A stretch of DNA of 39,881 bases from an uncultured Saprospiraceae bacterium (GCA_964595615.1 CAZQTE010000004.1:1-39881), one strand, 5' to 3'. Shown: positions 2,374 to 22,140, counted from the stretch's first letter. Notes: a model not told the origin generated them from the letters alone. Program-made: numbers and translations.

Positions 2374-3525
2374 TTAACGTGCGGGATTCATCGTGCTGAG
2401 CATAGCACGGAAAAAAGGGAAAATTTGCATGGTGCTCATTATCTTGATTTCCTCTGGGAAAGAGGTTTCTTCTGACATAAACTTTAATACTTGAGACGGT
2501 TTATTATTTTCAAATAAAGTCCCAAATACCTCTGGCGGTGGCACACGATGATGTTGTAAGACATTCAAAAAAATACGGTCTAACCAAGCCGAACGCCTTT
2601 GTCTAATCGTCTTTTTCACATACGGACTACCCGTTTTTTCCAACTGCGCTACCATTTTCTGTAAATGCTTTTGCAAATAACAAAATGTATATCCAGAGGA
2701 AGCTTTCGTATTGCCACCAGCAGTACCGATATTGACGATATTTTTATTGCCAGCAGAAAATTTAAAATCCGTCATTGGAATAACACCAAACTCTTCATGT
2801 GTGACTTCATACTCTCCTATTCCCGGCAAAAATTCTTGGATGTAATCTGTGATAATGCGGTCGTATTCCTCTGATTGTAGTAAATCTGGAGAGAAAAGAG
2901 TCGCTTCAATTAAAGCTTCATTTTCGCTGGTTGGCAAGACATAAACAAAGCGTGTCTCGCCCTGATGTGGTACTCGAAAATCCATAAGTGTAGCCTTATC
3001 AGGGCTAAAAAACGGCTCTTTTGTACGAATCGTCCAACCTTTAAAGTGCTGGTCTAAATAATGATTTTCTTTTTTATTTATCTTTTCAAATCGAATGCTA
3101 TTGAAGCAAAAATCTGCGGTATAGCTATTTTCGGCTGTAGTTACTAACACTCCTGAGTCCGTATTCACAACTTTCTGGACGTTTTCCACAGACTTATCCA
3201 CATTTGGGCGACTTATCAACATTTCTTTCCCGTATTGATAAAAATCAATACCACGAATCATCTTATATGTATAAGGTTCGATGTTAAGTGTTTGTGAAAA
3301 ATCAGGTGTATGAAAATCCAAATGTTGCCAACGGTGATGCACTAAAAACTCAAAAGGGCTTTTTTCTCGCTCCCAAAAACACCACGTCCGGTCATTTTCT
3401 AATTTTTCGGACTTGTCTATGATTAATATTCGCTTATCTCGCAAAGAAGATTGCTGTAGGAAGTGTACCAAACTGATACCTGCCAAACCGCCGCCAGCGA
3501 TGATATAATCATAATGTCTCTTCAT
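2374..3525 (-). CDS. crtY: Lycopene beta-cyclase (CrtY family)
   Basis: 383 aa. N-terminal FAD fold DYIIAGGGLAGISL. Length fits the lycopene cyclase family, and it lies in an operon position after crtI-crtB. Confidence 0.75.
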   Translation of the reverse strand: MKRHYDYIIAGGGLAGISLVHFLQQSSLRDKRILIIDKSEKLENDRTWCFWEREKSPFEFLVHHRWQHLDFHTPDFSQTLNIEPYTYKMIRGIDFYQYGKEMLISRPNVDKSVENVQKVVNTDSGVLVTTAENSYTADFCFNSIRFEKINKKENHYLDQHFKGWTIRTKEPFFSPDKATLMDFRVPHQGETRFVYVLPTSENEALIEATLFSPDLLQSEEYDRIITDYIQEFLPGIGEYEVTHEEFGVIPMTDFKFSAGNKNIVNIGTAGGNTKASSGYTFCYLQKHLQKMVAQLEKTGSPYVKKTIRQRRSAWLDRIFLNVLQHHRVPPPEVFGTLFENNKPSQVLKFMSEETSFPEEIKIMSTMQIFPFFRAMLSTMNPAR

Positions 3526-3526
3526 T

Positions 3527-3554
3527 AGTTGGAAGTTGTTAGTTGGTAGTTGGT
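3527..3554. repeat. Heptamer array AGTTGGN x4
   Basis: Units agttgga, agttgtt, agttggt, agttggt lie between the crtB stop and the crtY start. Confidence 0.8.
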
Positions 3555-3582
3555 AGCCAAGCGCGACTTGTACTACTCACTT

Positions 3583-4419
3583 CTACAACAAATTTAACTG
3601 ATGCCTCACCGCGGTGCTGAAAAGTAGCGTCACTTTACGACCATTTGGTACTCTGATGCGCTCTTCTTTTACGTGTGCAGCGGTTGCTTTTTTGATTTTA
3701 GCAAACAGTTTTGTGTAATAAACATAAGCTAACATCACGCCTAATCTTGCGCCTGTTGGCAACTTAATAATACCTTGATAAGCATCATCAAAATCTTTTT
3801 TGATGTCGGCTTCGATAGTGATTTTATCCTCATTGGTGAAATTCACAAAATCTACTCCAGGGAAGTAAACACGTCCACGCTCATCAAAATCACTCTTCAT
3901 ATCACGCAAGAAATTTATTTTCTGAAAAGCAGAACCTAAACTGCAAGCCGGTGCTTTTAGACGTTCATATTGTTCTGTATCTCCATTCGTAAATACGCGC
4001 AAACACATCAGACCAACAACCTCTGCCGATCCGTAAATATACTGCTTATACAGACTATCGTGGTAGCGTTCGTGATATAAATCCATTTCCATACTATCCA
4101 AAAATGCATCAATCAACTCGCGTTCGATACCATATTCATGCACTACTGCTTGAAAAGAATGTAAAACAGGATTTAAGCTGATTTTTTCCTTGATAGCCGT
4201 GTAGGTATCTTCACGAAAACGGCGTAATAATTCGCCCTTTTCATAGCCATGAAAGGTATCTACTATCTCATCGGCAAAACGCACAAAACCATAAATTCCA
4301 TAGATAGGCATCTGATATTTAGAGTCAAATACCTTGATTCCCATAGAGAAAGAAGTACTGTAACGATTAGTAATTAATTTACTGCATTCATTGCAAACGT
4401 CGTTGTATAAGGAGAGCAT
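3583..4419 (-). CDS. crtB: Phytoene synthase
   Basis: 278 aa of the squalene/phytoene synthase family. Motifs YGFVRFADEIVD (Asp-rich motif 1 region) and FLRDMKSDFDERGRVYFP. Confidence 0.85.
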   Translation of the reverse strand: MLSLYNDVCNECSKLITNRYSTSFSMGIKVFDSKYQMPIYGIYGFVRFADEIVDTFHGYEKGELLRRFREDTYTAIKEKISLNPVLHSFQAVVHEYGIERELIDAFLDSMEMDLYHERYHDSLYKQYIYGSAEVVGLMCLRVFTNGDTEQYERLKAPACSLGSAFQKINFLRDMKSDFDERGRVYFPGVDFVNFTNEDKITIEADIKKDFDDAYQGIIKLPTGARLGVMLAYVYYTKLFAKIKKATAAHVKEERIRVPNGRKVTLLFSTAVRHQLNLL

Positions 4420-4435
4420 AATATTTTTTTTGTTT

Positions 4436-5944
4436 TTAAATGGTTAGAGACGGAGCCTTGTGTTTATTTTCAGTTGGAAATTTCTTTGCGATTTCCTTCG
4501 CGACAACTTGTCCTGAGATTAATGACGGCGGCATTCCGGGTCCAGGCGTTGTCAATTGTCCTGCATAATAGAGATTATCTATTTTTGGATTTTTCAATTT
4601 TGGTTTTAGAAATGCTGTTTGAAGCAAAGTATTAGCTAAACCATAGGCATTTCCTTTGTATGCATGATAATCATCTTTAAAATCCTTGTGTGCAAAAGAA
4701 CGTTTGTAGACAATCGAACTACGTATTTCTTGCCCAGTCAGGTTTTCTAAACGCTTCATGACCATATCAAAATATTGCTCGCGCAATTCTTCGGTATCTT
4801 CCAAATCTGGTGCTAAAGGTATCAGCACAAAAACATTCTCACAGCCTGCTGGTGCGACGCTGTCATCCGTGATAGAAGGCGCGCAGACGTAGAAAAGTGG
4901 TTCTGTTGGCCACTTCGGCTCCGTATAAATCTCGTGTGCGTGCAACTCAAAATCTGTATCAAAAAACAGATTATGGTGACGCAGATTTTTCAATTTTTTA
5001 TTTACACCAAGGTAAAATAGTAAAGACGAAGGCGCCATTGTGCGTTTGTCCCAATATGCTTCGGTGTATTGTCTATCTTTTTCTTCCAAAAGATGCTGCT
5101 CAACGTGGTGATAATCCGCGCTGCCTACGACTACATCTGGTTGATAAGTTTGCGTGTCAGTAATGATTTCAGTAGCTGTTCCATTTGTCGTTTTAATGGA
5201 GCGCACTTCTTGATTTAGCAGAATTTCTACACCTAATTCTTCTGCCAGACTGACCATTCCCTCGATAATCTTGTGCATTCCGCCCATTGGATACCAAGTT
5301 CCGCCGACCATATCTGCATAATTCATTAGACTATAAAGAGCGGGTGTTTTTTGAGGGGTTGCACCCAAAAACAAAACAGGAAACTCTAAAAGCTCAATCA
5401 AACGTTTATTGGTAAAGAGTTTTCTAATTTGAGAAGAAACAGATGAAAACATCTGTAACTTAAACAAACTGGAAACAACACGCATATCTGCAAACTCGAA
5501 AATTGAATGTCCTGGTTTATGAACAAACTCTTCAATACCAACTTTGTATTTGTATTCTGCCTCTGCTAAGAATTTTTCTAATTTCTTTGCACTGCCTGGT
5601 TCATAGCTTTCAAACATCGCCAACAATTCATCCCATTTGGCAGGTACTTGCATAAATTCCTTTTTATCAAAAATAACTTGATAAGAAGGGTCTAAACGCA
5701 CTAAGTCATAGTAGTCAGAGGATTTTTTACCAAATAATTCAAAAAAATCTTCAAATACATCGGGCATCCAATACCAACTCGGTCCCATGTCAAAAACAAA
5801 TCCTTCTTCCTCAAATTTTCGGGCACGACCACCAGCGATACTGTTTTTCTCCAATATCGTCACATCATAGCCTTTCTTAGCCAAGCAACATGCTGATGCT
5901 AAGCCTGCAAAACCTGAACCTATTACTATTACTTTTTTTGACAC
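4436..5944 (-). CDS. crtI: Phytoene desaturase (CrtI family)
   Basis: 502 aa. N-terminal VIVIGSGFAGLASA...EKNSIAGGRA dinucleotide fold. C-terminal YYAGQLTTPGPGMPPSLISG, typical of CrtI. Confidence 0.9.
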   Translation of the reverse strand: MSKKVIVIGSGFAGLASACCLAKKGYDVTILEKNSIAGGRARKFEEEGFVFDMGPSWYWMPDVFEDFFELFGKKSSDYYDLVRLDPSYQVIFDKKEFMQVPAKWDELLAMFESYEPGSAKKLEKFLAEAEYKYKVGIEEFVHKPGHSIFEFADMRVVSSLFKLQMFSSVSSQIRKLFTNKRLIELLEFPVLFLGATPQKTPALYSLMNYADMVGGTWYPMGGMHKIIEGMVSLAEELGVEILLNQEVRSIKTTNGTATEIITDTQTYQPDVVVGSADYHHVEQHLLEEKDRQYTEAYWDKRTMAPSSLLFYLGVNKKLKNLRHHNLFFDTDFELHAHEIYTEPKWPTEPLFYVCAPSITDDSVAPAGCENVFVLIPLAPDLEDTEELREQYFDMVMKRLENLTGQEIRSSIVYKRSFAHKDFKDDYHAYKGNAYGLANTLLQTAFLKPKLKNPKIDNLYYAGQLTTPGPGMPPSLISGQVVAKEIAKKFPTENKHKAPSLTI

Positions 5945-7805: not shown

Positions 7806-7844
7806 CAAAAAAAATGCCGCATATTTTCATTATGAAAATATGCG
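7806..7844 (-). terminator. Intrinsic terminator after the PorV-like gene
   Basis: Stem cgcatattttcat / atgaaaatatgcg. The A8 run on the plus strand gives a U-tract on the minus-strand transcript. Confidence 0.7.
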
Positions 7845-7881
7845 ACATTCATGGAGTAATCAAATACTCTAGTCTAATTTC

Positions 7882-8952
7882 TTAGAGGTCAAAACGCAAA
7901 CCTATGTTGTGCGTACCACCTAAGATTTTAGAAGCACGGTAAGCGTAATCAATACCAACTTGAGTACCAAAAAGACCTTTGTCTTTTGCTTCTTTATTCA
8001 ATGGCAACTGAAGAGAAAAACCTCCTGCTAAACCTGAATAAAGTGGTGCTTCATTAATATTAGAAGAACCCACTTCGTAACGGTATGCACCACGTAAGAT
8101 AAAAATATCTTTTAATGAGTACTCTAAACCAGCACCAAACTGATCTTGAGAGAATGCATTAGAAGTGAAATTACCAACCAGTGTTATGCGGTGTGCATCT
8201 GTGAGACGGAAATCATAAGAAGCTCCAATATTCAACTGAGATTGCAATTCAAATTCTGCTGTACGTTCCTCGATAGCTAAGTTGTAAGAAGAACCTCCAT
8301 TTGGAATCTCAACACTACGAACAATACCTTCTCCTTGGAAACGTAAAGTACCACCTACGTTACGTAAAGAGATACCTAATTTAAAATTATCATCTTCACC
8401 AGTTACATACTGAACACCTGCATCTACCGCAAATGTACTTGCGCGCAAGTCGGCAATTCCTTCTGATACTCCACGAAATAAAACACCAACAGATATTTTG
8501 TTTTCGAAAACATGAGAGTAACCAACACCAATATTAATAAAACGTGGAGAGAAATTTGCTCCAGTTCCTTCTGGTTGGTTAGTTGTTGTAATTGGAATAT
8601 CACCAAAATCTAATGCCATTACACTAAATGCAAGGGCGCCATTTTCACCTACCCTTTGAGATAAACCAAATGCGTTTATGTCAATTCCAGAACCTTGCAA
8701 ATATTTTGCGTGACTCAAGTTTACCTGAGTTTTATTAATACGCGCAGCTCCTGCAATGTTTAATCTAAGAGCGTCTACACCAGATACATTTGCTGTATTC
8801 ATGCTGTGTAAACCTGCACTACGTGCCCATGGCATCATCAACAACTCAAATGCTCCTGCCTCACCTTGACGGTCAGGGTTTCCTGCTTGAGCAGTCTCAG
8901 CTAGCATACAAACTAATGCAAAAGACAATATGAAGTAAATATATTTAGTCAT
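7882..8952 (-). CDS. PorV/PorQ-family outer-membrane beta-barrel
   Basis: 356 aa with a signal peptide. The N-terminal segment ELLMMPWARSAGLHSMNTANVSGVDALRLNIAGAAR resembles the PorV/PorQ signature (..pdaRa.gmG.a.vA...d..a...NPAg.a). It shows alternating beta-strand character and ends in an aromatic RFDL-type terminus. Confidence 0.6.
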   Translation of the reverse strand: MTKYIYFILSFALVCMLAETAQAGNPDRQGEAGAFELLMMPWARSAGLHSMNTANVSGVDALRLNIAGAARINKTQVNLSHAKYLQGSGIDINAFGLSQRVGENGALAFSVMALDFGDIPITTTNQPEGTGANFSPRFINIGVGYSHVFENKISVGVLFRGVSEGIADLRASTFAVDAGVQYVTGEDDNFKLGISLRNVGGTLRFQGEGIVRSVEIPNGGSSYNLAIEERTAEFELQSQLNIGASYDFRLTDAHRITLVGNFTSNAFSQDQFGAGLEYSLKDIFILRGAYRYEVGSSNINEAPLYSGLAGGFSLQLPLNKEAKDKGLFGTQVGIDYAYRASKILGGTHNIGLRFDL

Positions 8953-9057
8953 GTTTATGCTGTTACTTTATTTTTGATATCTCCTAATAAAGGAGATTTC
9001 GACTCAAGATAAAATGAATTATCTTCTTTTATCGATTCAAAAAATATTTATTTAAGA

Positions 9058-9095
9058 AGCAGATACTCTTTTTTTTTTGTAAAAGAGTATCTGCT
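9058..9095 (-). terminator. Hairpin after the 1348-aa gene
   Basis: 15-bp stem agcagatactctttt / aaaagagtatctgct with a T-rich loop, 13 nt downstream of the stop. The tail is only moderately U-rich. Confidence 0.5.
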
Positions 9096-9107
9096 AAAAT
9101 TTTATTC

Positions 9108-12100
9108 CTACAAGTTAGACGGGTCAAGAGCACGGTTAGTACCGAACCATTTGAGCACACGCTCACCTAATCCCTCTGCATCTACGTGTATCAAATAAAC
9201 ACCACCTGCAATCGGAATATTCTTACTATTCTTCATATTCCAATCGATATCTGGCAAGATTTGAGTTTTCGCAATACCCGAACCAACAGGTGCCTGACCT
9301 GTTTCATCACGATCATATCTACGAATGAATTTACCATCCAAAGTATAGATTGTAACGACACACTTAGCAGGTAGATTAGTAATCTTAACTACATTATCTG
9401 TATTGTTACCATCGTAGTCAGAGAAACCATAGTAAGGGTTTGGAACAATGTTAATTTCATCTAGTTGACTTTCAATACCTACTGCATCTAAGTCACCAGC
9501 TTGTTTACCATTGATAGCAAACTCATAGGCAGGATTAGTACCACCCTCAGCTTCTGTTCCTTGCATGTAATCGTAAGCATTATTGACACGCAACTTAATA
9601 GTCAAATCTGCAGGGATTAAACCGTCTGCATAAGATTTAAGTGTTGCACCAGGATTTAGGAATGGTACACCAGTCCAAGTTACCTCTTTCAATGCATTAA
9701 CTCTAGCTAAAGAGTTACCATTTAAAGCTTCAGCAATAGCCTCACATTCATCGTATGGTTGCTTCGTCACATAGATAAAGTGTTGTCCACCTAATACTAA
9801 GTTAAAAGCAGTAGGATTTGTCGCATCTGTAAATGGAGAGAAAAATTGAGATGTTGGATTGAACATCATGTCTCCTCCTGTTGGTGTACCGTCAGTGAAA
9901 AAGTCACAATTACTTGGATTGTCTGTACAATCATAAGATGAGTTTTCTCCAAAGAAGATATTCAAACGTTGTCCTGTTTCTACATCAACAGCATAGCCAG
10001 GGAAGTATCCCATTCCCATACCTGTGTTGTCTGCATCAGGCAAACCGTCACCGTCATTATCATCTAAACCTACACTTGGTGATTGTCGTGGATCTAAACT
10101 TTCCGCTCCTCCAATAGCAGGAAGTACTGGAGAAGTTGATGTTTCTACAATAACACAACGAGACCATAGATTCTTATCAGAAGTAAATACAATATTTACA
10201 TTGTTCAAATCTGCATAAGAAGTTGTATTTCTTACCAAGTTGTTACTGTTATTCTGCCATGCTGGAGATACATTACCAAATGGGTAAAGAACTTGACCTG
10301 TACGGTATTCTGCTAATTTGTAAGGGAAAAATCCACTACCAATATTTACAAGACCGCCATCTGGATCTTCTGCATTTAAGTCACCCGCCGCTGCGAAGTT
10401 TAATCCTAAAGATAAGAATTGTGAATTACCAATAAGATCGCCTCCTAAGTTAGGAATACCAACATACCAAGGCGTTGCGTCTTCATCTGCATATTCTTCA
10501 ACTGCCCCGATAGCACCATTCGTATCGTCTAATTGTGCTCCAGGCTCGGAAACTTGACCGATAGATACTGTAAATCCGTACTCTCCAATGATTTGCTCAT
10601 TAAGAGCATCTATTGATTTTTCAGAATCGACCTCAACACTAGAGCCTGAAGTCATTCTCCACTTTTTCAAATCTCCGTCGCTTCCAAAGTCTTCGTCTAA
10701 GATATCTAACTTAAATTCGCCATCTCTAACATCTAATGGGTTATAGACTTTTACATCTATTGGTCCTAGTCCTTCTTTGTACACAATTGGTTCATCAAAA
10801 CGACCTCCATTGCTATTAAAAGAACTTGAGTTTTTGATGTTGTCCAATGTCTCCTCTGTAAGATCTAAGAAATTCCCACCATTACCAACACCGTCCAAAC
10901 GGGTAATTTGAGCACCGTCACCATAAGCAGAATTTAGATTTCTATCTGTAATTGGACGAGGAATACCAATGTAAGTATTAATATTTCTACGACCTTCTAC
11001 ATAAGGTTTTGCTTGACCTTCCCCAAAGGAAGGATCAAAGTTTTGCCAATTGTTGTATCCGTATGCAATAGCAGAGAAATAATACTTCTTATGATTAATT
11101 AAAGTCGCATTATTACCACCTGCAAACTGATCTTTATCTATAACAAATGTATGACGAATACCATTGTCTGCTCCTTCTACTTCTTTTACGGCAGTAAATA
11201 TTGACTCACCAATAAAATCTGGAGTATCATCTAATGCATTCCAATTGTATAATGTAGAAATACCATCCTTGATATCTACTTGTCCAATAATACGGGCTTT
11301 GTCAGGATTATCGTAATCTCCTGTTGATACAAATCCATCGATTAACTGATAAATGATGTAACCTTGGAATTCATAAAATTCATTACCTGGTGCATTGATA
11401 TCAAGTTCAGTGTATAACTCATTTGCATTGTTTGATGTAAATTCATCATTTGTCAAAATCAATACTACCTCACGATCTAATTCGATGATGTCTACATCTG
11501 GAGCATCTGGCCCATCCAAAATATCAAAACAAGAGTTGAAAAGATTTTGAGCCAAATCATCTGCATTGAATAAACGAGACATATCTGGACATGGGTAATC
11601 AAAGTCTGGAACCCATACCGCACCAACAATTAATTCATTAACTGCACCCGGCAAAAGAGTAAATGGTCCTGATGCCTGTACCGTACGACGGTCATACTCA
11701 GGATTATTAGCTGCTGCTGCTGTACACATTGACCAACCTGCTTGATCATCTGGTTCATCAGGGAATACATATTGTACAGGAGTTGTACCTCCATATCCAT
11801 TTCCTCCTTCTGTAAATGGTGTACCATCACGCCATAATCCACTCATGTAACGGTAATACTCAAGAACCGTATTAGGGTCAGTCTCCGCACCTGGAGGAGG
11901 TCCTTCACCTGGGTTATTAAAGTAAGTAAAGGAAGACATTCCTAATTCTACTTCAAGTTGCTCGCCCAATGAATCCAATACAGGGTTACCCATATCGTCA
12001 AATATTGGTTCTTTTGGTCCACGGAAATAGTCAATACCCAATGCTGGAATTGTAGTTCCATAAGTTTCTACTGCTCCACACTGTGTACCAACATCACCAT

Positions 12101-13154
12101 CTTCGGCGTCAACGTTGTAATAATAAGCTAAACTACGTGTCGTATCACAACCGATGTAATCATCAGTAAAACATCCCAAATCGGCATCTACCCACATTGC
12201 AAAGAATGTAGAGTCAATCTTAAGAGAGGCACGGTTAATCAACTTATAACGTTGAAAAGTCATATCATTCAAGGCATCATTTGTTTCATAAGCAAATGAT
12301 TGAACCTGAATTTCCATTTTAATTTTGTCACCATTAGACTCTGTGTGGACATTACCTGCATCATTATATATCCAGAAAAACATCTGGTCAGGGAATTGCG
12401 GAGTCACACATCCTTCAATCTCGATAATCGGAAAATCTCCCATTAATGGATTGTACTTTTCATCTCCATCTTCATCCCAAAATGCACCTAAACCTTGTGT
12501 TGTATTAGGTAGTTCAAAATTGTTGATTTCAACGAAAAAAGGATTTCCTTTACCAGGCCAACCTTTTACTCCTAATGGAATGTCAGCAGGGTCATATTCT
12601 GTTCCTGTACTAATAGCTCTGTTGTAAGTATCCAGGTGTTCCTCAATCTCTGGTCCTGTTACTACCCAAAAACGGTCCCATTGTTCACAAATAGAATCAG
12701 CTGTAGTACCACGTAATACAGGGTCTTCACTTGGATTCAATGGTCCAGTCCAAAAGTCACGTGAATCCGCCCCAGCATTACCATACTGCTGAGCAGCTAC
12801 TTTGTATGCACCCTCTTGGATACCACCTAACCATACACCACCTGCGAAGATAGAAGAAACCTCTCTATCTCCAGCTTCTAGTGGTTTTGGTACAATATAT
12901 TTACCATCAGAACGATCCCACCATACATCACCACCTGTCGTTAGACGGGCACGTACATTATTAACATTCTGATCAATCTGTGCTACTGGCTTCACACAGT
13001 CATTTCTAAAAGAAGCGACACTCTCTGGGTTACTATTCCCCGTATTTGGTGTCGAGTTATTCGGCGAGTTGTTTAAAGGGCTAATGTGTGCATTCGCTGA
13101 AAAAGCGAAGAACAAAGCCAACAAACTCATTAAATACCACTTTCTAAAATTCAT
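9108..13154 (-). CDS. Large secreted protein of unknown function with C-terminal beta-sandwich (FlgD-Ig / T9SS-CTD-like) domain
   Basis: 1348 aa. Signal peptide LLALFFAFSANA. The C-terminus is VPNPYY...VVTIYTLDGKFIRRY...IDWNMKNSKNIPIAGGVYLIHVDAEG...KWFG. I recognise no catalytic motif. Confidence 0.55.
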   Translation of the reverse strand: MNFRKWYLMSLLALFFAFSANAHISPLNNSPNNSTPNTGNSNPESVASFRNDCVKPVAQIDQNVNNVRARLTTGGDVWWDRSDGKYIVPKPLEAGDREVSSIFAGGVWLGGIQEGAYKVAAQQYGNAGADSRDFWTGPLNPSEDPVLRGTTADSICEQWDRFWVVTGPEIEEHLDTYNRAISTGTEYDPADIPLGVKGWPGKGNPFFVEINNFELPNTTQGLGAFWDEDGDEKYNPLMGDFPIIEIEGCVTPQFPDQMFFWIYNDAGNVHTESNGDKIKMEIQVQSFAYETNDALNDMTFQRYKLINRASLKIDSTFFAMWVDADLGCFTDDYIGCDTTRSLAYYYNVDAEDGDVGTQCGAVETYGTTIPALGIDYFRGPKEPIFDDMGNPVLDSLGEQLEVELGMSSFTYFNNPGEGPPPGAETDPNTVLEYYRYMSGLWRDGTPFTEGGNGYGGTTPVQYVFPDEPDDQAGWSMCTAAAANNPEYDRRTVQASGPFTLLPGAVNELIVGAVWVPDFDYPCPDMSRLFNADDLAQNLFNSCFDILDGPDAPDVDIIELDREVVLILTNDEFTSNNANELYTELDINAPGNEFYEFQGYIIYQLIDGFVSTGDYDNPDKARIIGQVDIKDGISTLYNWNALDDTPDFIGESIFTAVKEVEGADNGIRHTFVIDKDQFAGGNNATLINHKKYYFSAIAYGYNNWQNFDPSFGEGQAKPYVEGRRNINTYIGIPRPITDRNLNSAYGDGAQITRLDGVGNGGNFLDLTEETLDNIKNSSSFNSNGGRFDEPIVYKEGLGPIDVKVYNPLDVRDGEFKLDILDEDFGSDGDLKKWRMTSGSSVEVDSEKSIDALNEQIIGEYGFTVSIGQVSEPGAQLDDTNGAIGAVEEYADEDATPWYVGIPNLGGDLIGNSQFLSLGLNFAAAGDLNAEDPDGGLVNIGSGFFPYKLAEYRTGQVLYPFGNVSPAWQNNSNNLVRNTTSYADLNNVNIVFTSDKNLWSRCVIVETSTSPVLPAIGGAESLDPRQSPSVGLDDNDGDGLPDADNTGMGMGYFPGYAVDVETGQRLNIFFGENSSYDCTDNPSNCDFFTDGTPTGGDMMFNPTSQFFSPFTDATNPTAFNLVLGGQHFIYVTKQPYDECEAIAEALNGNSLARVNALKEVTWTGVPFLNPGATLKSYADGLIPADLTIKLRVNNAYDYMQGTEAEGGTNPAYEFAINGKQAGDLDAVGIESQLDEINIVPNPYYGFSDYDGNNTDNVVKITNLPAKCVVTIYTLDGKFIRRYDRDETGQAPVGSGIAKTQILPDIDWNMKNSKNIPIAGGVYLIHVDAEGLGERVLKWFGTNRALDPSNL

Positions 13155-13193
13155 AGCTCCGAGTTTTAAAAAATTTCTAGTTATATTTTTAGA

Positions 13194-13259
13194 GATGTTA
13201 GATTTTAGATGTTAGACTTCAATTTAGTAATTATAGCCTAACATCTAAAATCTAAAATC
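13194..13259. repeat. Inverted heptamer arrays forming a 22-bp stem hairpin
   Basis: Arms 13194-13215 gatgttagattttagatgttag and 13238-13259 ctaacatctaaaatctaaaatc pair at 21/22 positions. It lies between the TBDT-like stop and the 1348-aa start. Confidence 0.85.
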
Positions 13260-13276
13260 TTATCAAGGTGTCCTTC

Positions 13277-16200
13277 TTAGAAGTCTACTCTTGCACCGAT
13301 GTACAATCTGCGCGGTAAGCTCAAAAAGTTCGGATTTAATAAACGCCATTGGTAAGATGCCAAATAGCTTGCTGGATTTGCTCCTGCGGCAATGTTTGTC
13401 TGCGCTTGGTCTGTTTCTAAGAAACCATCAGTAAACGGTGAACCTGTAGCAGAGTAAACTTGGATAATATTAGCCGTATTTAATAAGTTAGCTACACGGA
13501 AGTAAACGTTCAAGTTTAATCCATTGCTTCCTTCTTTCGCTTGACGTAGAGCAAAGTCTTTGTCTACACGGAAGTTTACAGTATTTCTCCAAGGCAAACG
13601 TGAACCATTCAATCCACCTTTTGTCTGACTTCCTGATAAAACCTCAGGTGTTGTAGTAGCAGTATATGGGCGACCAGATACAGCAACTACTTGGATGTTT
13701 GCACCTGCATTAGCAAAAATTTGCTTACCAAATAATTCAGGTCCATTGTATTTTTTACCAGAAGCGTAACGATAATCCAAGTTAAGATTAACTCGGTGAC
13801 GCTCATCAAATGATAATGGATACAATGCACGTAATACTTCACGAGATCCTAAACCACGAGAAGAGTTGGCGTCAGAACCTGTACCGTCTGCAAATTGTAA
13901 TGTGTAAGACGCATTCAATGAAACGTTTCCTGTTCTACGCAAGTCATATTGGAAAGAGAAACCTTTAACAGTACCAAAATCCAAGTTGTCATAAGTATAG
14001 TAATTCGTAATTGCTTCAATATTTTGGTAAATACGAATCTGAATCATGTCTCTCAACTCTTTGTAGTATGCTGCAATTTTCAATGCAGAACTGTTACTAA
14101 TTTTCTGTTGGAAACCAACCTCATAATCAATCGTTTTCTCTGGTCTCAAGTTTGCGTTCGCTTTTGGGCTGTTCGCAGTAAGATTACGACTATCAAAGTT
14201 TAAGTACTCATAAGGACTTGCCACGTTATTAGTTGGTGGACGTTGAACTAAGATATCGTAGTGCGCAAAGAAGTTTGCATCCTCGTTAATCGGGAATGAG
14301 AATGCGATACGAGGCATAAGGTTAACTTGTGGCTTGTAATCTTCAAAAGACGTGTTAATATCAAAGTTTTCATCTCTGATATTTGAGTCAGGGTCTACTC
14401 TCTTTCCGGGTGCGATAGTACCACCAAAAATCTCTGTTGGACTATTTGCTTGTACACCTGAAGGGAAGAACCAAGTATCTCCGTCACGGTATGCTCTCAC
14501 TGAAGTACCTTCTTGAGAGTCTACATAAACGGCAAAGTCGTCTCCAATTGTACTAGGGCTAGCAATACCAAATTTCTCTTGGAAAGAGCTTGCTGTTTCT
14601 AACTCATATAAAGAGTATGGATCTTTTAATACTTTCGTATTAGCATCATAACTATCTACACGTAAACCCGCACGGATAATAATATCTCTAAATTTGAATT
14701 TATCTTGGATGTATGCAGCAGTATAAGTAGGACGGAAAGGTGCAACTGGACGTGTTAAGTTTCCTGCTTCATCTTTTCTTGTAAAGAAGTCCTCAAATGT
14801 ACCATTAAAGTCATTACCTAAGTAATCATATCCGTAGTAGTCAAAACCTAGTCTCGACTCTGTATTTAACTCAGCAGCAGTAAACATTTCTAAGGCCAAC
14901 TGGTCTGGCGTTAAAGCGTCCGTGTTTACGTTTGTAAATCTGTCTACGCCTAAAGACTCTCTGATATTTTCAAAGAAATTATCATTTCCTAATACACCAC
15001 CACCAGCTCCATATAATTGAACAGGAGTCCAACCAGGAACAGGCTCGTTTGATACGTCAGTAAAATCTGCAGGATTAACATAAACTTCATTAAGGGGATT
15101 GCTCGTATCAACACCGTCAAAACCAACGTTTGCTTGTTGTCTTGCTACTGTCCACAATTCACGAGGTGACATTTCATAAGAGCGGTTTGTTCTTTGCTCA
15201 TATAGTAAACCTATTTCGATACTGTGCTTCCCTTTCTCTGATCCGCCTGGCAATAAATCAAAACTAGCATTTACTTGTCCCGTTAATGTTTGTTCATCTC
15301 TAATATTGTAAAAGTTATATACTGTACCTACATTAGTATGAAAATTATAACTATCAGTAAATAAATCTGAAGTACGTCCATTTAATGCTGGATCACCAAG
15401 ACCTGGTTGGTTATAATTTGCTAAAACAGGGTTAATATCACCTGCGACAAATCCACCTTCTCCTGGCTCTTGACGATAACCTTGGTGCTCGATTACTTGG
15501 TTACCAAATTCGTCAATAATTACATTACCTGCGTCATCACGAGCAAGTCCAATCTCAGGTTCGTATGTCGCATCAAAAGAACCAACATAACCATAGTTAA
15601 ATAGATTTTCACCATGTCTTGGATCTCCTAGCTTATAATCAAACTGCTCTAAACCTGCTTGAATAGTATAAGACGCATTACGGATAGCATTTCCTTTGGC
15701 AGCTTTAGCATCGTCTGCATTAGCTGTACCTTCAGATGATTTACCTAAACGGTGACGGAAACGGAAGTTTCCACGGTAACGTTTCTCATCTGTAAAAGGA
15801 TTATTATGCGCATTTAATAAACGCCAGTTTGCCGCTGTTGCACTTGCTTCCCCTGGAGTAAAAAAGTCGATTTCACCAGAATAAGTACCAGTTACTGCAA
15901 CATCAATAGCATCACTCAAACGTGCATCAATTTTTGCAGTTAAATCTAAACGTTCATTTTGTTCAAATGGCTGAATGTCTAAAACATCAACATCTTCTTC
16001 TGTCAAAAAATCAGCGGTAGGACCTCCTACATAAGTAGGTGTTTCTTCCAATCTTGCTAAAGCCTCATCATTAATACGGAAAATATCTACAGCAGATGGA
16101 TCATCATCTTCTAAGTATCTGTACTGACCTGAAATACGATACCCCAATAAAGCATTACCCTCTTTATTTTTAATGATAGGACCGTTCAAGTAAGCAGATG

Positions 16201-16939
16201 CTAAGTTATAACCATAAGGATCTAAGTATCTCGAAGTCTCTATATCAAATCCACCACCAAATTTAGCTGAAGGACCTTTAGTCGTGATAGAGATAACACC
16301 ACCTGTTACATCACCATACTTAGCACCGATACCACCTGTAATAACTTGTAATTGCTCAATCTCTGACTGAGGTATTAAGTTACCCGATACACGAATACCA
16401 TCAATGTAGTAAAAAGTACCGTCAGAACGAGAACCACGTATAGATACCGCATCTCCCTCATCCGCAGAATTAGTACCTGCTACTTGCGAGATGATACCAT
16501 TAATGTTTTTCGACGGAAGATTCGCGATGTCCTTACTCGTCAAAGACGCACCTTGTGTAGTGTTGTCTTGCTCAACTAGAGGAACTTTAAATTCTCTAAC
16601 TACTGCTGTTGCAAGAGTTACTCCTGATGCCAAAGTAGCATCTAAGGTTGTTTCTTTATCAGCATTAATTAATACACCTTCATACTTCACGTCTTCATAA
16701 CCAACATACTTGAAGACAACTTCATAAGTACCAGGGTCAATAGGTGAAATAATAAAGTTACCGTCAAAGTCAGTTTGCTCTCCTGTTACAAGAGCACCAT
16801 TACGATAAAGTACTACATCTCCGAAAAGAATCGGTTCTCCCGTATCAGCGTCGGTTACTTTACCCGACAGGGCGGACTGAGCGGTAGCAGACACCAGTCC
16901 CATTAGTAAAAAAGAAAAAATAAGTAGATAACGTGCCAT
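13277..16939 (-). CDS. TonB-dependent-receptor-like outer-membrane protein with N-terminal CarboxypepD_reg domain (Oar-like architecture)
   Basis: I prefer the start at Met26 (MARYLLIFSFLLMGLVSATAQ signal). Carboxypeptidase-regulatory-like segment GKVTDADTGEPILFGDVVLYRNG...GTYEVVFKYVGYED. Plug motifs SIRGSRSDGTFYYIDGIRV and ITGGIGAKYGDVTGGVISITTK. C-terminus LYIGARVDF. Confidence 0.85.
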   Translation of the reverse strand: MARYLLIFSFLLMGLVSATAQSALSGKVTDADTGEPILFGDVVLYRNGALVTGEQTDFDGNFIISPIDPGTYEVVFKYVGYEDVKYEGVLINADKETTLDATLASGVTLATAVVREFKVPLVEQDNTTQGASLTSKDIANLPSKNINGIISQVAGTNSADEGDAVSIRGSRSDGTFYYIDGIRVSGNLIPQSEIEQLQVITGGIGAKYGDVTGGVISITTKGPSAKFGGGFDIETSRYLDPYGYNLASAYLNGPIIKNKEGNALLGYRISGQYRYLEDDDPSAVDIFRINDEALARLEETPTYVGGPTADFLTEEDVDVLDIQPFEQNERLDLTAKIDARLSDAIDVAVTGTYSGEIDFFTPGEASATAANWRLLNAHNNPFTDEKRYRGNFRFRHRLGKSSEGTANADDAKAAKGNAIRNASYTIQAGLEQFDYKLGDPRHGENLFNYGYVGSFDATYEPEIGLARDDAGNVIIDEFGNQVIEHQGYRQEPGEGGFVAGDINPVLANYNQPGLGDPALNGRTSDLFTDSYNFHTNVGTVYNFYNIRDEQTLTGQVNASFDLLPGGSEKGKHSIEIGLLYEQRTNRSYEMSPRELWTVARQQANVGFDGVDTSNPLNEVYVNPADFTDVSNEPVPGWTPVQLYGAGGGVLGNDNFFENIRESLGVDRFTNVNTDALTPDQLALEMFTAAELNTESRLGFDYYGYDYLGNDFNGTFEDFFTRKDEAGNLTRPVAPFRPTYTAAYIQDKFKFRDIIIRAGLRVDSYDANTKVLKDPYSLYELETASSFQEKFGIASPSTIGDDFAVYVDSQEGTSVRAYRDGDTWFFPSGVQANSPTEIFGGTIAPGKRVDPDSNIRDENFDINTSFEDYKPQVNLMPRIAFSFPINEDANFFAHYDILVQRPPTNNVASPYEYLNFDSRNLTANSPKANANLRPEKTIDYEVGFQQKISNSSALKIAAYYKELRDMIQIRIYQNIEAITNYYTYDNLDFGTVKGFSFQYDLRRTGNVSLNASYTLQFADGTGSDANSSRGLGSREVLRALYPLSFDERHRVNLNLDYRYASGKKYNGPELFGKQIFANAGANIQVVAVSGRPYTATTTPEVLSGSQTKGGLNGSRLPWRNTVNFRVDKDFALRQAKEGSNGLNLNVYFRVANLLNTANIIQVYSATGSPFTDGFLETDQAQTNIAAGANPASYLASYQWRLLNPNFLSLPRRLYIGARVDF

Positions 16940-17168
16940 AAAATCCGATTTTATTAAATAGGCTTGATTTTGAGAATTGAGCAAGCCTAATGTATTATGG
17001 TCCAAAATTTTCACCCGGCAGGGGTAAAAACGTGCAATATTAATAATTATTTAATGTTTCGTTATAAGGATTCAAGCTCTCTTGTCAGCAAACTGACCAA
17101 GCTTGATTGAATCTCTGCAAAAACGGTAAGACTCGGACATTTTACAGCCCTGTTTTCTTTCCATTGCT

Positions 17169-17176
17169 CAAAATTA
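17169..17176 (-). promoter_or_regulatory. Candidate Bacteroidota -7 box TAATTTTG
   Basis: Plus-strand caaaatta is TAnnTTTG on the minus strand, about 230 nt upstream of the TBDT-like ATG. The -33 element is poorly spaced. Confidence 0.2.
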
Positions 17177-18149: not shown

Positions 18150-18447
18150 TTTACTAACTGTTTATACGTATTTTTAAGAGAAAACACATCAAAATTAAGA
18201 TAATTGGACAACTATTTTTTATTTTTGTAATTGTAGATTTAAGTTAAATTTTGAGAATACCCTCCCATCTCAAAATACTCCCCATTTTCAATAATCAAAC
18301 TTCACGTATTAATTATATTGACTTTAAAGAGTCTCCCCCCTTCTTTAATGCAATTTCTATTTTCAATGTTAGTAGTACCAGCTAAACTTGGTATATCTTT
18401 TTTTAGGTATCTCTGAGTGTTCGCTTGTATTAAAAAAAACAAATACT

Positions 18448-21400
18448 ATGTTTTTCATCACTCAACACAAATTGAGGGGCTTACTCTGCGTTGCATTATT
18501 ATTTTTATCTATTTCTATTTTTGCTCAATTTAGTCTGAAAGCCGACCGTACGACAGCAAATTACGATATTGGAGAAACGGCAGAGTTTATTCTAAACTCT
18601 TCACAAAGTGGGACAGCAACCTACAAATTAAAATATGATAATATCACCCCTGCTATTGAAACGGGTAGTATAGCCGTTTTTGCAAACGCCCCTGCTACTA
18701 TTCCATTCCAAGGAGCAAGTGCAGAAGTAGTATTGTGTGAAGTAAGTCTCAATGGAGTTACAAAAACTTCAGCGGCTGTTTTTGATAGTCAAAATATTGA
18801 CTTATTTAGTGAGGAGCCTTCAGATTTTGACCAATTTTGGGACAATCAAAAAAACATATCTGCCTCTATTCCCCTTGATCCTCAATTAACGTATCATTCA
18901 AACGATGGTGAAGTTACTAATTACCGTATCAATCTTGCTAATGTTGATAATAGACGCGTTTACGGTTATATTAGTATCCCCAATAGTGGAAGCAATTTCC
19001 CTGCAATCATCACCTTACCTCCTTTTAGTAGTGCTGCGAATACTGTTAGTCCTCAAAGCTTTGTAGCTAATAGAGCTGGTGTTATCTCTGCTACCATTTC
19101 TGTTCACAATGCAGAACCTGATCAAGTAGACCCTTCCGCTTATGAGCCGAATATTATTAATGATAGAGATAATTATTATTATCGTTATGCAATACTAGGA
19201 ACTTTAAGAATGATTGATTATTTGTACACGAGGTCCGACTTTGACGGTCAAAATATTGGCATCACGGGAGTAAGTCAAGGAGGAGGATTAGCATTAATAG
19301 CTGCTGGTCTTGATGACCGTGTAAAATCTCTTTCGATAAGTAATCCTGCCATGTGTAGACATGCAGGCTATGACCAAGGTAAAGCAAGCGGTTTCCCTTA
19401 TTATGTCCAACGCTCTGACTTTTTGGAGAATAATGCAACTCATTATGCGCAGACTCTTTCAGCATCTCGTTATTACGATGCTGCGTATTTTGCACGTCGT
19501 TACATGGGACCGACATTAGCTATTGTCAGCTATGCAGATGATATTACGCCAGCAGGAACAAGTTTTGCAGCTCTAAATGAATTGCGAGCTAATAAAATAA
19601 TTGCTCACGCCCGAGACTTAGGTCATACGCACCCTTCGGCATACTGGGAAGGACGCTATAATTTATGGCGTCATGAATTTCCTGCAACGATACAACTCCC
19701 TTATCATACCAATACAGGATACTGGGCAGAGGCTGGTGATGATCGCACAGCAACAACGGATACAGAGCTGGACCTTAGTGGACAAGTATTTCAGAATGGT
19801 GTAAACAACTATAGTTTCCCTGTCGAATGGGAACTTATCGAGGGACCAGATGATGTTACATTTAGCAATGAAAACGTTGCCAATCCTTCGGTTGAATTTG
19901 ATACTCCAGGGCGATATTTATTACGTTTCACAGCTTATGATTACGGTAGTCTGATGAATGAAGGAATTTTTCATGAAATTTCGGATTTCATGTATGTAGA
20001 TGTCGAAGGAAACGGTCAACAAGCGGATACGAGCCTACCAACTTGTCAATTAACTTTTGCTGGTTTTAATCCAGGAGGAAGCCTAAGGATTTCAGCTACA
20101 TTTAGTGAGCCTGTTATTGGTTTGACAGCAGATGATTTTCAAGTTACCAATGGAACAGTAGAGTCAATAGTAGGTGGTGGTGCCAACTACACTTTAGATG
20201 TTTTTCCGCTTGTAGTTGGAAATGTTCGTATTAGCTTGCCTTTTGGACAAGCAACGGATACTGCTGGAAACCTAAATTTGCCTTCAAATCAAGTTAGTAT
20301 TTTTATAAGCAGCCCTCCTCCTCCTCCTGGTGGTGGCTGTGATAATGTTTTTTCTGGTGGTGAAATTAGTGGAGATGAAAGTAGATGTGAGGCTTTTAAT
20401 CCAAGTACTATAACTAGTAATTCTTCACCTGTAGGCGGCACTGGAACTCTAGAATACCAATGGCAATCGGCGCCTTCCCTGTCAGGAAATTGGACAAATA
20501 TACCAAATGCGAACTCTGTTACTTTTAATCCAACATTTTTAAGTACAACAAGTTATTTTAGACGTCTTGCACGTCGCGCTGGCTGTGATGACTATGAAGG
20601 GATAAGTAATGCAATTGTTAAAGAAATAATAGAAAACGAAGAACCCGTATCGAATGCGCCTACTGGTTACTGCGCAATGCAGGGAGATAATCCAAATAAC
20701 TTTTTCATCAGAAAAATAGAGTTGGAGAATTTATCTCATGAATCTTCAAGAGAAGGCTATGCGGACTTTACATCAGAGTCTGCCACTTTAGCACCAGGCA
20801 GTGTTTATATAGCTCACTTAACACCTGGTAATGAGTCCGTTACAAATAATTGGGTGGGTTGGATTGACTACAATAGAGACGGAGATTTTAATGACGAGAG
20901 AGAATTAATTATTTTTAAAAGCGACAATACCACTGTTAATGCATTTTTTGAAGTGCCAGCCAATGTAGAACTAGGTGCAACTCGTATGCGTATCGCATTG
21001 CGTGGTAATAGTTTTCCAGCTCCCTGCTATTCGTACGCGGAAGGTGAAGTAGAAGATTATACTATTATTTTGGGTAGCGAAGCTGGTTCTGGTGGAGGTC
21101 CTACGACCAATCCTAGCCCAACAAATCCAAATCCAACACCAACTTACTGTGAAGCAAGAGGTACAGAGCCTTGGTGGCAATGGATTTCACGCGTACAATT
21201 TGCAGATTTAGATCATAGTAGTTTTAAAGAAAGATACGGCGACTTTACAGATAGATTTGCCAATGTAGAAGCTGGAAATACTTATGAACTAAGTCTGACT
21301 CCTGATTTCTCTTGGCTTATTTTTGATATGAATTGGAAAGTTTGGATTGACTTTAATCAAGATGGAGATTTTGAAGATACAGGAGAGTTAGTTGCGGATG

Positions 21401-22140
21401 GAATATCTGGTTCAGAAATAAGTTTTGATGTACAAATTCCGTCCTCTGCCCCTACAGGTACAACAGGAATGCGAGTTGCCTCAAATGTTGATGAAATCCC
21501 AGATGCCTGTACAAACATTGTACGGGGAGAATTTGAAGATTATTCTATTGTTGTTAGCGGTAACGACTGTGGGAATGGAAACAATCGTTTTAGTCCAATC
21601 TTAGATTTAGTAGCACAACCTTACGCACGTGAAGTAGAACTACACTGGACTACAAATACTGAATATAAAAATAAAAATTTCATTATTGAACACTCTTTAG
21701 ATGGTGTCAATTTTGTGGAATTAGGGCAACAGGAAAGTCTTACAGATGGCTATCTACCAAATGTATATCGTATAAAACACGAAAATCCACCTCTTGGAGA
21801 GAACATTTATCGTGTTAAACAAATATATAATAATGGAAGCCATGTATACAGTGAAGCGAAAAAAGTGCTTTTCACGCTAGATTTAGAAGCATTCATCCCC
21901 TATCCTAACCCTTCCTCACAAAAGTTGTATTTACCTCTACAAAAATACGCGGGACAGACCGCGCATGTGAAAATTTATAATAACTTTGCACAACTTTTGA
22001 GAACATCCGTCGTAAACAGTCTGTCGATTGAACCGGAGGAAATTGATGTGTCAGATTTACAGGACGGTATTTATTACATCTCTATAGAGATTGCCGGGCA
22101 AAGAACTATTAGCCGGGCATTCACAGTTTTTCGAATTTAA
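18448..22140 (+). CDS. Multidomain T9SS cargo: acetyl-xylan-esterase-like serine hydrolase, Ig-like domains, 2 GEVED domains, T9SS C-terminal sorting domain
   Basis: Start taken at the ATG at 18448 (signal LLCVALLFLSISIFAQ). AXE1-like N-terminal part with nucleophile elbow GVSQG. GEVED signatures AEGEVEDYTI and VRGEFEDYSI. C-terminal PYPNPSSQKLYL...GIYYISIEIAGQ...FTVFRI. Confidence 0.8.
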   Translation: MFFITQHKLRGLLCVALLFLSISIFAQFSLKADRTTANYDIGETAEFILNSSQSGTATYKLKYDNITPAIETGSIAVFANAPATIPFQGASAEVVLCEVSLNGVTKTSAAVFDSQNIDLFSEEPSDFDQFWDNQKNISASIPLDPQLTYHSNDGEVTNYRINLANVDNRRVYGYISIPNSGSNFPAIITLPPFSSAANTVSPQSFVANRAGVISATISVHNAEPDQVDPSAYEPNIINDRDNYYYRYAILGTLRMIDYLYTRSDFDGQNIGITGVSQGGGLALIAAGLDDRVKSLSISNPAMCRHAGYDQGKASGFPYYVQRSDFLENNATHYAQTLSASRYYDAAYFARRYMGPTLAIVSYADDITPAGTSFAALNELRANKIIAHARDLGHTHPSAYWEGRYNLWRHEFPATIQLPYHTNTGYWAEAGDDRTATTDTELDLSGQVFQNGVNNYSFPVEWELIEGPDDVTFSNENVANPSVEFDTPGRYLLRFTAYDYGSLMNEGIFHEISDFMYVDVEGNGQQADTSLPTCQLTFAGFNPGGSLRISATFSEPVIGLTADDFQVTNGTVESIVGGGANYTLDVFPLVVGNVRISLPFGQATDTAGNLNLPSNQVSIFISSPPPPPGGGCDNVFSGGEISGDESRCEAFNPSTITSNSSPVGGTGTLEYQWQSAPSLSGNWTNIPNANSVTFNPTFLSTTSYFRRLARRAGCDDYEGISNAIVKEIIENEEPVSNAPTGYCAMQGDNPNNFFIRKIELENLSHESSREGYADFTSESATLAPGSVYIAHLTPGNESVTNNWVGWIDYNRDGDFNDERELIIFKSDNTTVNAFFEVPANVELGATRMRIALRGNSFPAPCYSYAEGEVEDYTIILGSEAGSGGGPTTNPSPTNPNPTPTYCEARGTEPWWQWISRVQFADLDHSSFKERYGDFTDRFANVEAGNTYELSLTPDFSWLIFDMNWKVWIDFNQDGDFEDTGELVADGISGSEISFDVQIPSSAPTGTTGMRVASNVDEIPDACTNIVRGEFEDYSIVVSGNDCGNGNNRFSPILDLVAQPYAREVELHWTTNTEYKNKNFIIEHSLDGVNFVELGQQESLTDGYLPNVYRIKHENPPLGENIYRVKQIYNNGSHVYSEAKKVLFTLDLEAFIPYPNPSSQKLYLPLQKYAGQTAHVKIYNNFAQLLRTSVVNSLSIEPEEIDVSDLQDGIYYISIEIAGQRTISRAFTVFRI

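Follow-up and report, generated by a model that had tools for sequence, protein, structure and literature searches.

A conserved three-gene locus of many Bacteroidota encoding a TonB-dependent transporter, a large protein with a PorZ-like type IX sorting domain and a PorV/PorQ-family barrel

In the secretion system of type IX (T9SS), the outer-membrane barrel PorV shuttles cargo to the attachment complex (PMC5562754). PorU and PorZ also count among its substrates; both retain their C-terminal domains uncleaved and are seated on PorV and PorQ, respectively (PMC10947112, PMC5562754), and it has been proposed in a review that cognate PorV-like barrels shield such domains from cleavage (PMC10202324). 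Cargo of type B is held at PorP-like barrels, and the genes of several such barrels lie beside those of the cargo (PMC9143113). In the Bacteroidota β-barrel assembly machinery (BAM) complex, BamG, a FadL-type barrel of 14 strands, keeps a large protein of the cell surface up against a larger barrel (PMC12578637, PMC12611786), and CHU_1606, a TonB-receptor-like PorF homologue of C. hutchinsonii, co-purifies with PorV (PMC8564354). Here, we describe three consecutive genes (the triad) for a TonB-dependent transporter, a large secreted protein and a PorV/PorQ-family barrel on a 39,881-nucleotide (nt) contig from an uncultured Saprospiraceae bacterium (GCA_964595615.1 CAZQTE010000004.1:1-39881). 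This contig is the whole stretch of DNA that was analyzed and is referred to below as the window. The main features are:

13277–16939, minus strand: TonB-dependent transporter of 1220 amino acids (aa), with a signal peptide, a CarboxypepD_reg extension, a Plug domain and a large barrel ending ...ARVDF
9108–13154, minus strand: secreted protein of 1348 aa from an unannotated family (the large protein), with a signal peptidase I signal peptide, a short disordered linker, a β-rich multidomain body, a C-terminal sorting domain and a tail
9141–9458, minus strand: C-terminal immunoglobulin (Ig)-like β-sandwich of the large protein, T9SS-type and by prediction closest to that of PorZ (approximately residues 1233–1338)
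9111–9140, minus strand: conserved 10-residue tail TNRALDPSNL, which follows the last strand of the C-terminal domain and marks the triad-linked class
7882–8952, minus strand: PorV/PorQ-family outer-membrane barrel of 356 aa, in a subfamily apart from PorV, PorQ and PorV2

By analogy with these systems, we tentatively favor a reading to which we give a little under an even chance: the large protein would be exported by the T9SS, retain its C-terminal domain and dock on its own PorQ-like barrel beside an importing transporter, forming a surface uptake complex. The original prediction for this DNA had described three co-oriented minus-strand genes with spacers of 122 and 155 nt, and the coordinates of the open reading frames (ORFs) agree with it: 7882–8952 (356 aa), 9108–13154 (1348 aa) and 13277–17014 (1245 aa, with a GTG start), separated by 122 nt between transporter and large protein (13155–13276) and by 155 nt between large protein and barrel (8953–9107). 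An alternative ATG start at 16939 gives the 1220-aa transporter of the original prediction, with a normal signal peptide, MARYLLIFSFLLMGLVSATAQS.

The synteny sample comprised 80 species-level genomes, all Saprospirales, and full-length orthologues of all three genes occur in the same order in about 80 species-level genomes. Carriers that can be cultured include Membranihabitans marinus, Neolewinella aquimaris, Neolewinella antarctica and Lewinella sp. JB7. Among testable Saprospirales loci, the large protein has the transporter next to it in 69 of 70 and the barrel in 73 of 75. Locus L022 accounts for one failure with each neighbor; its triad is intact, and the best match there was to the second of the tandemly duplicated copies. 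The triad is thus a conserved unit, and the synteny on which the original prediction depended holds across genomes. Estimated median spacers are ≈37 and ≈91 nt. The same order was found at ≈33% identity in loci L083, L084, L088 and L091, from metagenome-assembled genomes labeled Sphingobacteriales, Bacteroidia or Bacteroidota. Typical identities are ≈45–54% for the large protein, 43–54% for the transporter and 47–62% for the barrel; for greA they are 58–71%. To judge from these sequence comparisons, the pattern of conservation resembles that of a fixed machine more than that of a variable nutrient locus. A greA gene and a HIT gene usually follow the triad (in the window, both lie beyond the terminator described below), and we regard them as conserved neighbors only. 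In L091 (1–2176), the triad lies directly downstream of skp (OmpH), murI and a 2-hydroxyacid dehydrogenase gene, and has two tandem transporters. The skp-murI neighborhood follows bamA in many Bacteroidota.

The C-terminal domain of the large protein was placed by structure and profile comparisons. An AlphaFold2 (AF2) model of residues 940–1348 had a predicted local distance difference test score (pLDDT) of 85.6, and its best Foldseek match in the PDB was PorZ (5m11; E = 1.1e-5, root-mean-square deviation (RMSD) = 3.6 Å, 117 columns); in this search, the matches fell on the C-terminal domain of the large protein only. PorZ was followed by FlgD, the substrate C-terminal domains in SprA-PorV complexes (8glk_D and 8gl8_D) and the C-terminal domain of RgpB; NucA and RemZ domains were also found. 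The full-length 1348-aa protein matched neither TIGR04183 nor PF18962. Among 32 diverse relatives, however, 13 matched TIGR04183 and 13 matched the C-terminal-domain part of the PorZ model, and two of three individually inspected relatives passed the TIGR04183 cutoff. When the 118-aa C-termini of triad-type proteins were isolated, the C-terminal part of the PorZ model matched 14 of 14 (best E = 7e-11), the PorU model likewise 14 of 14, and TIGR04183 13 of 14; the isolated domain from the window matched the PorZ model at E = 0.0042. The type B model TIGR04131 matched one domain of 14 (E = 0.09). With hhalign, the window-type domain aligned to bona fide paralogue domains, including those of P0202 and P0215, which pass TIGR04183, at a probability of 99% and E = 4.8e-18. 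Since this match ends at KWF, the tail is an addition to an ordinary domain. Foldseek, hhalign and the profile scans of relatives thus upheld the C-terminal sandwich resembling FlgD-Ig and T9SS domains that had been proposed at the outset, and on sequence and model evidence the C-terminus is a T9SS sorting domain, most like that of PorZ.

The sorting domain does not sit at the extreme C-terminus, as ten conserved residues follow its last strand. The family consensus of this tail is KWFG-x-x-R-x-x-D-x-x-x-(L/F), and its pLDDT in the AF2 model is low. Tail classes were read from the C-termini of ≈460 full-length relatives. Class A, which accounts for ≈90% of them, has the pattern ...W-D-L-K-N...G-V-Y-L-I-H...K-W-F-G followed by a tail of ≈10 residues. 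Saprospirales have N-R-x-F-D-P-S-G-L as tail, and other lineages M-R-P-x-D-L-D-x-F. In class B, the T9SS domain is of the ordinary kind, ends with its last strand and is homologous to the class A domain by profile–profile comparison. The tail class tracks the neighborhood: among class A copies whose neighborhood was seen, all but one (L092) have a transporter in the locus, and all of these except L023 have a barrel too, while the stand-alone class B loci have neither (five of five: L085, L086, L087, L089 and L090). L022 and L093 have tandem large-protein paralogues around a single barrel; the order in L093 is large protein, barrel, large protein, tail-less large protein, greA.

The barrel passes the cutoff of the PorV family model (NF033709, 123.1 bits versus 90) over model positions 7–326 of 326, which bears out its initial description as PorV/PorQ-like. 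Against the orthologue models it scores best with PorQ (68.1 bits versus a cutoff of 220), followed by PorV (53.3 versus 250) and PorV2 (34.8 versus 325), and this wide shortfall on all three excludes a canonical PorV, PorQ or PorV2. Of the PorP/SprF type, PF11751 was matched at 20.2 bits, under its cutoff of 22.3. Among solved structures, F. johnsoniae PorV (6h3i_F, E = 3.9e-6) is closest in sequence. The mature N-terminus, GNPDRQGEAGA (residues 24–34), is invariant in 81 orthologues, and much of the remainder is variable. The original prediction had raised the possibility that this is the only, canonical PorV of the genome; that it is non-canonical follows from the orthologue-model scores alone. 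Two genes for ordinary T9SS cargo lie in the window (18388–22140 and 25399–30441, both on the plus strand), and the organism therefore very probably has a working T9SS; from the same genes we infer that a standard PorV is encoded elsewhere in the genome.

The triad shares several traits with the PorZ-PorQ and PorU-PorV pairs of P. gingivalis and F. johnsoniae. In both cases, the barrel is of the PorV/PorQ family and its partner is a large protein of the cell surface that carries a Sec signal and a T9SS domain, and the C-terminal domain in the window is structurally closest to that of PorZ itself. The porU (PG0026) and porV (PG0027) genes have adjacent locus tags (PMC5445135), and here the large gene is likewise followed by the barrel gene. 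However, the body of the large protein has neither propellers nor a peptidase domain, the barrel fails all three orthologue models, and the 10-residue tail and the TonB-dependent transporter as a fixed third member set the triad apart, as does the lack of sightings of the family in model organisms. Type B cargo, such as SprB-SprF and PG1035-PorP, offers another parallel, a private barrel encoded beside its own T9SS cargo, which there is anchored non-covalently at the surface (PMC9143113); in contrast, the domain here is type A/PorZ-like and the barrel belongs to the PorV/PorQ family rather than PorP/SprF. In BamA-BamG-BamH, a 14-stranded adaptor barrel of the FadL/PorV type grips a large extracellular protein by its loops and packs on a larger barrel. 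The N-terminal tail of BamG, which threads through the BamG lateral opening, is highly conserved (PMC12578637), and the barrel N-terminus here is invariant. This likeness is architectural only: a TonB-dependent transporter takes the place of BamA and a T9SS cargo that of the lipoprotein, and these different partners exclude the triad as a BamG complex.

The transporter matched PF13620 (E = 1e-13), PF07715 (E = 6.9e-9; 36.6 bits, cutoff 23.9) and PF14905 (OMP_b-brl_3, E = 3.2e-9; 36.8 bits, cutoff 27); its orthologues also match PF00593. It has the Plug domain and the C-terminal barrel with a terminal aromatic residue (...VDF) expected of a TonB-dependent transporter. The plug motifs are conserved across 73 transporter orthologues, as would suit a functioning gated transporter. 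The stretch that leads from the N-terminal extension to the plug, VVREFKVPLVEQD, was examined for a TonB box and is only partly conserved. No SusC/RagA model (TIGR04056), no model naming Oar and no PorF-type model was matched in NCBIfam or Pfam. The scanned ORFs of the window include no SusD-like protein, and the large protein encoded downstream has neither a lipobox nor a SusD domain. The Pfam scan of the window ORFs thus agrees with the proposed CarboxypepD_reg, plug and barrel protein without a SusD partner; the label Oar-like describes the domain order, as no Pfam or NCBIfam match names Oar.

With SusC/SusD and other lidded transporters, the triad shares the CarboxypepD_reg extension, a neighboring gene for a large surface-exposed partner and, as proposed here, capture followed by import. 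The partner is, however, neither a lipoprotein nor SusD-like and would use the T9SS and a separate barrel; with no SusC model match and no adjacent SusD-like lipoprotein, a SusC/SusD polysaccharide utilization locus is excluded. The putative lids of non-SusC transporters are also lipoproteins (bioRxiv 10.1101/2023.03.17.533168), unlike the large protein. PorF (PG0534) and Myxococcus Oar resemble the transporter as TonB-receptor-like outer-membrane proteins linked to protein secretion. PorF is a protein of 92 kDa in which the plug is reported missing (PMC8564354), whereas the transporter here has ≈135 kDa (from 1220 aa) and a conserved plug. No model or alignment ties the transporter to PorF or Oar, the Oar sequence itself not having been compared.

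The body of the large protein is the least familiar part of the locus. The protein has a Sec/SPase-I signal peptide without a lipobox, and searches of Pfam (even at E ≤ 10), NCBIfam and, by sequence, the PDB gave nothing, or spurious RRM matches at E = 0.26, in line with the signal-peptide protein without an assignable motif that had been described originally. The family is large, with 6607 clusters at 50% identity at E ≤ 1e-3 and 1692 at E ≤ 1e-30, and its named relatives are called hypothetical in the sources or, occasionally, "T9SS type A sorting domain-containing protein". None of the named relatives listed comes from the model T9SS organisms (Flavobacterium and Porphyromonas). The AF2 model of residues 23–1222 had a pLDDT of 77.7, and in Foldseek gave weak matches to β-supersandwich domains of glycoside hydrolases, phosphorylases and lyases (E ≈ 3e-4, template modeling score 0.1–0.18, RMSD 8–16 Å). 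These matches to carbohydrate-active enzymes are at most a hint from the model and assign neither fold nor function. PorZ was absent from the 50 best matches for residues 23–1222. For the very confident domain at approximately residues 960–1190, no analogue appeared among the Foldseek matches listed in the search of residues 940–1348. A few longer family members match cadherin-like, Big_9 or CshA-type repeat models; the longest in the scanned set, P0174, P0185 and P0205 (1522–1624 aa), may be among them. Adhesin-type repeats in longer relatives would fit a surface-exposed body.

Membership of a known family such as PorU was also considered. The PorU sortase model (NF033707) matched only over positions 983–1076, its C-terminal domain, at 10.8–19 bits versus a cutoff of 420, and the PorZ model (NF052228) only over positions 671–757, again the C-terminal domain, at 15.6–24 bits versus 260; the two β-propellers of PorZ were not seen. 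The large protein is therefore neither PorU nor PorZ, and it shares with them the C-terminal domain alone.

According to the reading favored here, the three genes would encode a single outer-membrane assembly. The large protein would be exported by the T9SS. Ordinary cargo loses its sorting domain to the PorU sortase, whereas the large protein would keep the domain, as PorZ and PorU do, and would be captured by the PorV/PorQ-family barrel encoded directly downstream; the 10-residue tail probably contributes to specific, permanent docking. The barrel would then tether the large β-rich ectodomain at the surface beside the transporter encoded directly upstream, where the ectodomain might capture or process an external substrate, possibly a glycan, for the transporter to import with TonB energy. 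The pairing of large protein and barrel is favored because of the PorZ-like domain, the PorQ-leaning barrel and the private tail that tracks the neighborhood, and a three-part surface complex is suggested by the constant third member, a transporter whose plug is intact. The sequence comparisons show the gene order, the family assignments, the PorZ-like domain and the tie between tail class and neighborhood; we infer that the domain is retained and contacts the barrel, that the assembly contacts the transporter, and that the transport is inward, of a substrate of the kind named.

Several observations weigh against this arrangement. The ectodomain has no convincing fold in the model, so that "substrate capture" and "glycan" are guesses. 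The strong hairpins in both spacers, described below, leave co-transcription of the triad unproven. The near-housekeeping conservation and the position by greA or skp-murI fit envelope biogenesis as well as uptake. The isolated domain from the window scores 16.5 bits on TIGR04183, under the cutoff of 23. The tail is also not perfectly coupled to its neighbors: L023 has a tail-bearing copy without an adjacent barrel, the class A copy P0352 (L092) stands alone, its genome carrying a full triad at another place (L091), and the triad locus L093 carries a tail-less copy. Because of the tail-less copy in L093 and the barrel-less tail copies, the link between tail and barrel is a correlation and not a strict rule.

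We considered the possibility that the triad is an accessory module of the envelope or the T9SS, in which the large protein and barrel would be a lineage-specific counterpart of PorZ-PorQ and the transporter would be PorF-like, delivering or recycling a glycan or lipopolysaccharide (LPS) component for surface assembly. PorF is a TonB-receptor-like T9SS component whose role is unexplained and whose deletion phenotype is like that of porQ and porZ, and glycan import in the biogenesis of A-LPS has been suggested for it (PMC12704123). A C-terminal domain closest to that of PorZ, a barrel that scores best on the PorQ model, and near-housekeeping conservation at a fixed position by greA or, in L091, skp-murI would all suit such a module. 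However, the body of the large protein lacks PorZ-like β-propellers and found no PorZ among the 50 best matches listed for residues 23–1222, the transporter of 1220 aa contrasts with the 92 kDa of PorF (PMC5445135) and matched no PorF-type model, and the tail-less paralogues suggest that the ectodomain works alone. The absence of model T9SS organisms from the named relatives listed also argues that the large protein is not a universal T9SS part. We consider such a module unlikely.

The transporter might instead act outward and help to release or assemble the large protein, with the barrel as shuttle; Oar reportedly acts in this way in the secretion of PopC in Myxococcus, an established precedent. 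The tight linkage of the three genes and the co-purification of a TonB-receptor-like protein with PorV in C. hutchinsonii (PMC8564354) speak for such an export route. The large protein, however, already has a complete T9SS signal, and in its paralogues this body comes with a T9SS domain of the ordinary kind, without a transporter. A folded protein of ≈140 kDa could not pass a plugged 22-strand barrel, and no Oar-specific model matched the transporter, so that we consider dedicated export improbable. The original prediction had put forward a secretion module rather than a nutrient uptake locus; this was not established, as nothing shows export over import by the transporter, and the data fit a T9SS-delivered surface partner on a private PorQ-like barrel by an importing transporter better. 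Finally, the three genes might have no joint function and have stayed side by side by chance: a nutrient transporter of the ordinary kind, a T9SS adhesin or enzyme unrelated to it, and a FadL/PorV-type channel of general use. Both spacers contain strong hairpins, the genes are linked by neither promoter nor transcript data, and greA and HIT are likewise conserved neighbors without an obvious functional link. Against this, order and orientation are kept at ≈33% protein identity and across lineages whose further surroundings differ, the spacers are short by their estimated medians, and the tail class tracks the neighborhood. We regard a chance association as very improbable.

The following transcription signals were found around the triad:

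17169–17176, minus strand: TAATTTTG, a promoter-like −7 motif of the Bacteroidetes type in a 670-nt leader, ≈230 nt upstream of the transporter start
13193–13260, minus strand: stable hairpin in the spacer between transporter and large protein (−34.5 kcal/mol, z = −6.4), without a U run after it
9058–9095, minus strand: hairpin with a 15-base-pair (bp) stem in the spacer between large protein and barrel, followed by a weak U-rich stretch
7812–7850, minus strand: intrinsic terminator closing the module after the barrel gene, with an 18-bp stem followed by eight U

The minus-strand pattern TANNTTTG has a single match across the three intergenic regions of the triad, at 17176–17169. The motif is only modestly over-represented across the window, which makes this match weak sequence evidence for a promoter. 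A sigma-70 promoter scan found fewer sites than in shuffled controls and is uninformative for Bacteroidota. Neither the 670-nt leader nor the whole window matched a riboswitch or other element in Rfam, which makes regulation of the transporter by cobalamin or TPP unlikely. The hairpin at 9058–9095 may act as a partial terminator or in processing or stability; the 118-nt segment of the spacer in which it lies folds at −30.5 kcal/mol (z = −5.2). Both of the spacer hairpins named in the original prediction are real by folding energy, and both have equivalents in the 85%-identical relative L003 (6869–7000 and 11060–11200), with different loops. They may balance the three proteins against each other in amount or act as processing sites. 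In one metatranscriptome run, four read-length (151-nt) pieces mapped to 10049–10890, all inside the large-protein gene, and none of these pieces spanned a junction.

Elsewhere in the window, a 362-aa ORF on the minus strand (1086–2174) has the C-terminal winged-helix domain of a plasmid-type Rep3 initiator (PF21205, E = 1.7e-10) and lies by a carotenoid cluster. The DNA looks chromosomal otherwise, and the ORF could represent an integrated element or else a remnant. The carotenoid cluster (2374–5944, minus strand) consists of genes for a lycopene cyclase, a phytoene/squalene synthase and an amine oxidase of the phytoene-desaturase type. Of the two T9SS cargo proteins, one has an acetyl-xylan-esterase/S9 hydrolase domain along with GEVED domains, and the other, of 1680 aa, has Sortilin-Vps10, Laminin_G_3 and PKD domains. 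A 248-aa protein of Ig-like repeats with weak Big_7, FlgD_ig and Filamin matches is encoded on the plus strand at 33470–34216.

Neither the triad nor the large-protein family was found to be described in the literature searched. Every element belongs to a known kind; what is new is how they are combined, together with the tail class and the unannotated ectodomain, and a very large, strongly conserved family has remained unannotated yet sits in a fixed three-gene module. It is possible, if doubtful, that a T9SS-exported partner, locked by an uncleaved PorZ-like domain and tail on a private PorQ-type barrel against the transporter, represents a second, lipoprotein-independent way in which Bacteroidota equip a TonB-dependent transporter with a surface partner. 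If so, type IX secretion would be coupled directly to TonB-powered transport in one conserved three-protein machine, with a transporter partner anchored by the T9SS instead of by lipid. The domain and barrel would then form a third class of cognate T9SS pair, the retention of uncleaved sorting domains by cognate PorV-like barrels would extend beyond the secretion machinery, and escape from the sortase would become testable. For TonB-receptor-like proteins such as PorF, whose part in type IX secretion is unexplained, the module provides a way in. Marine and wastewater systems harbor Saprospiraceae as abundant degraders, and a conserved complex for uptake at the surface would be relevant to their feeding.

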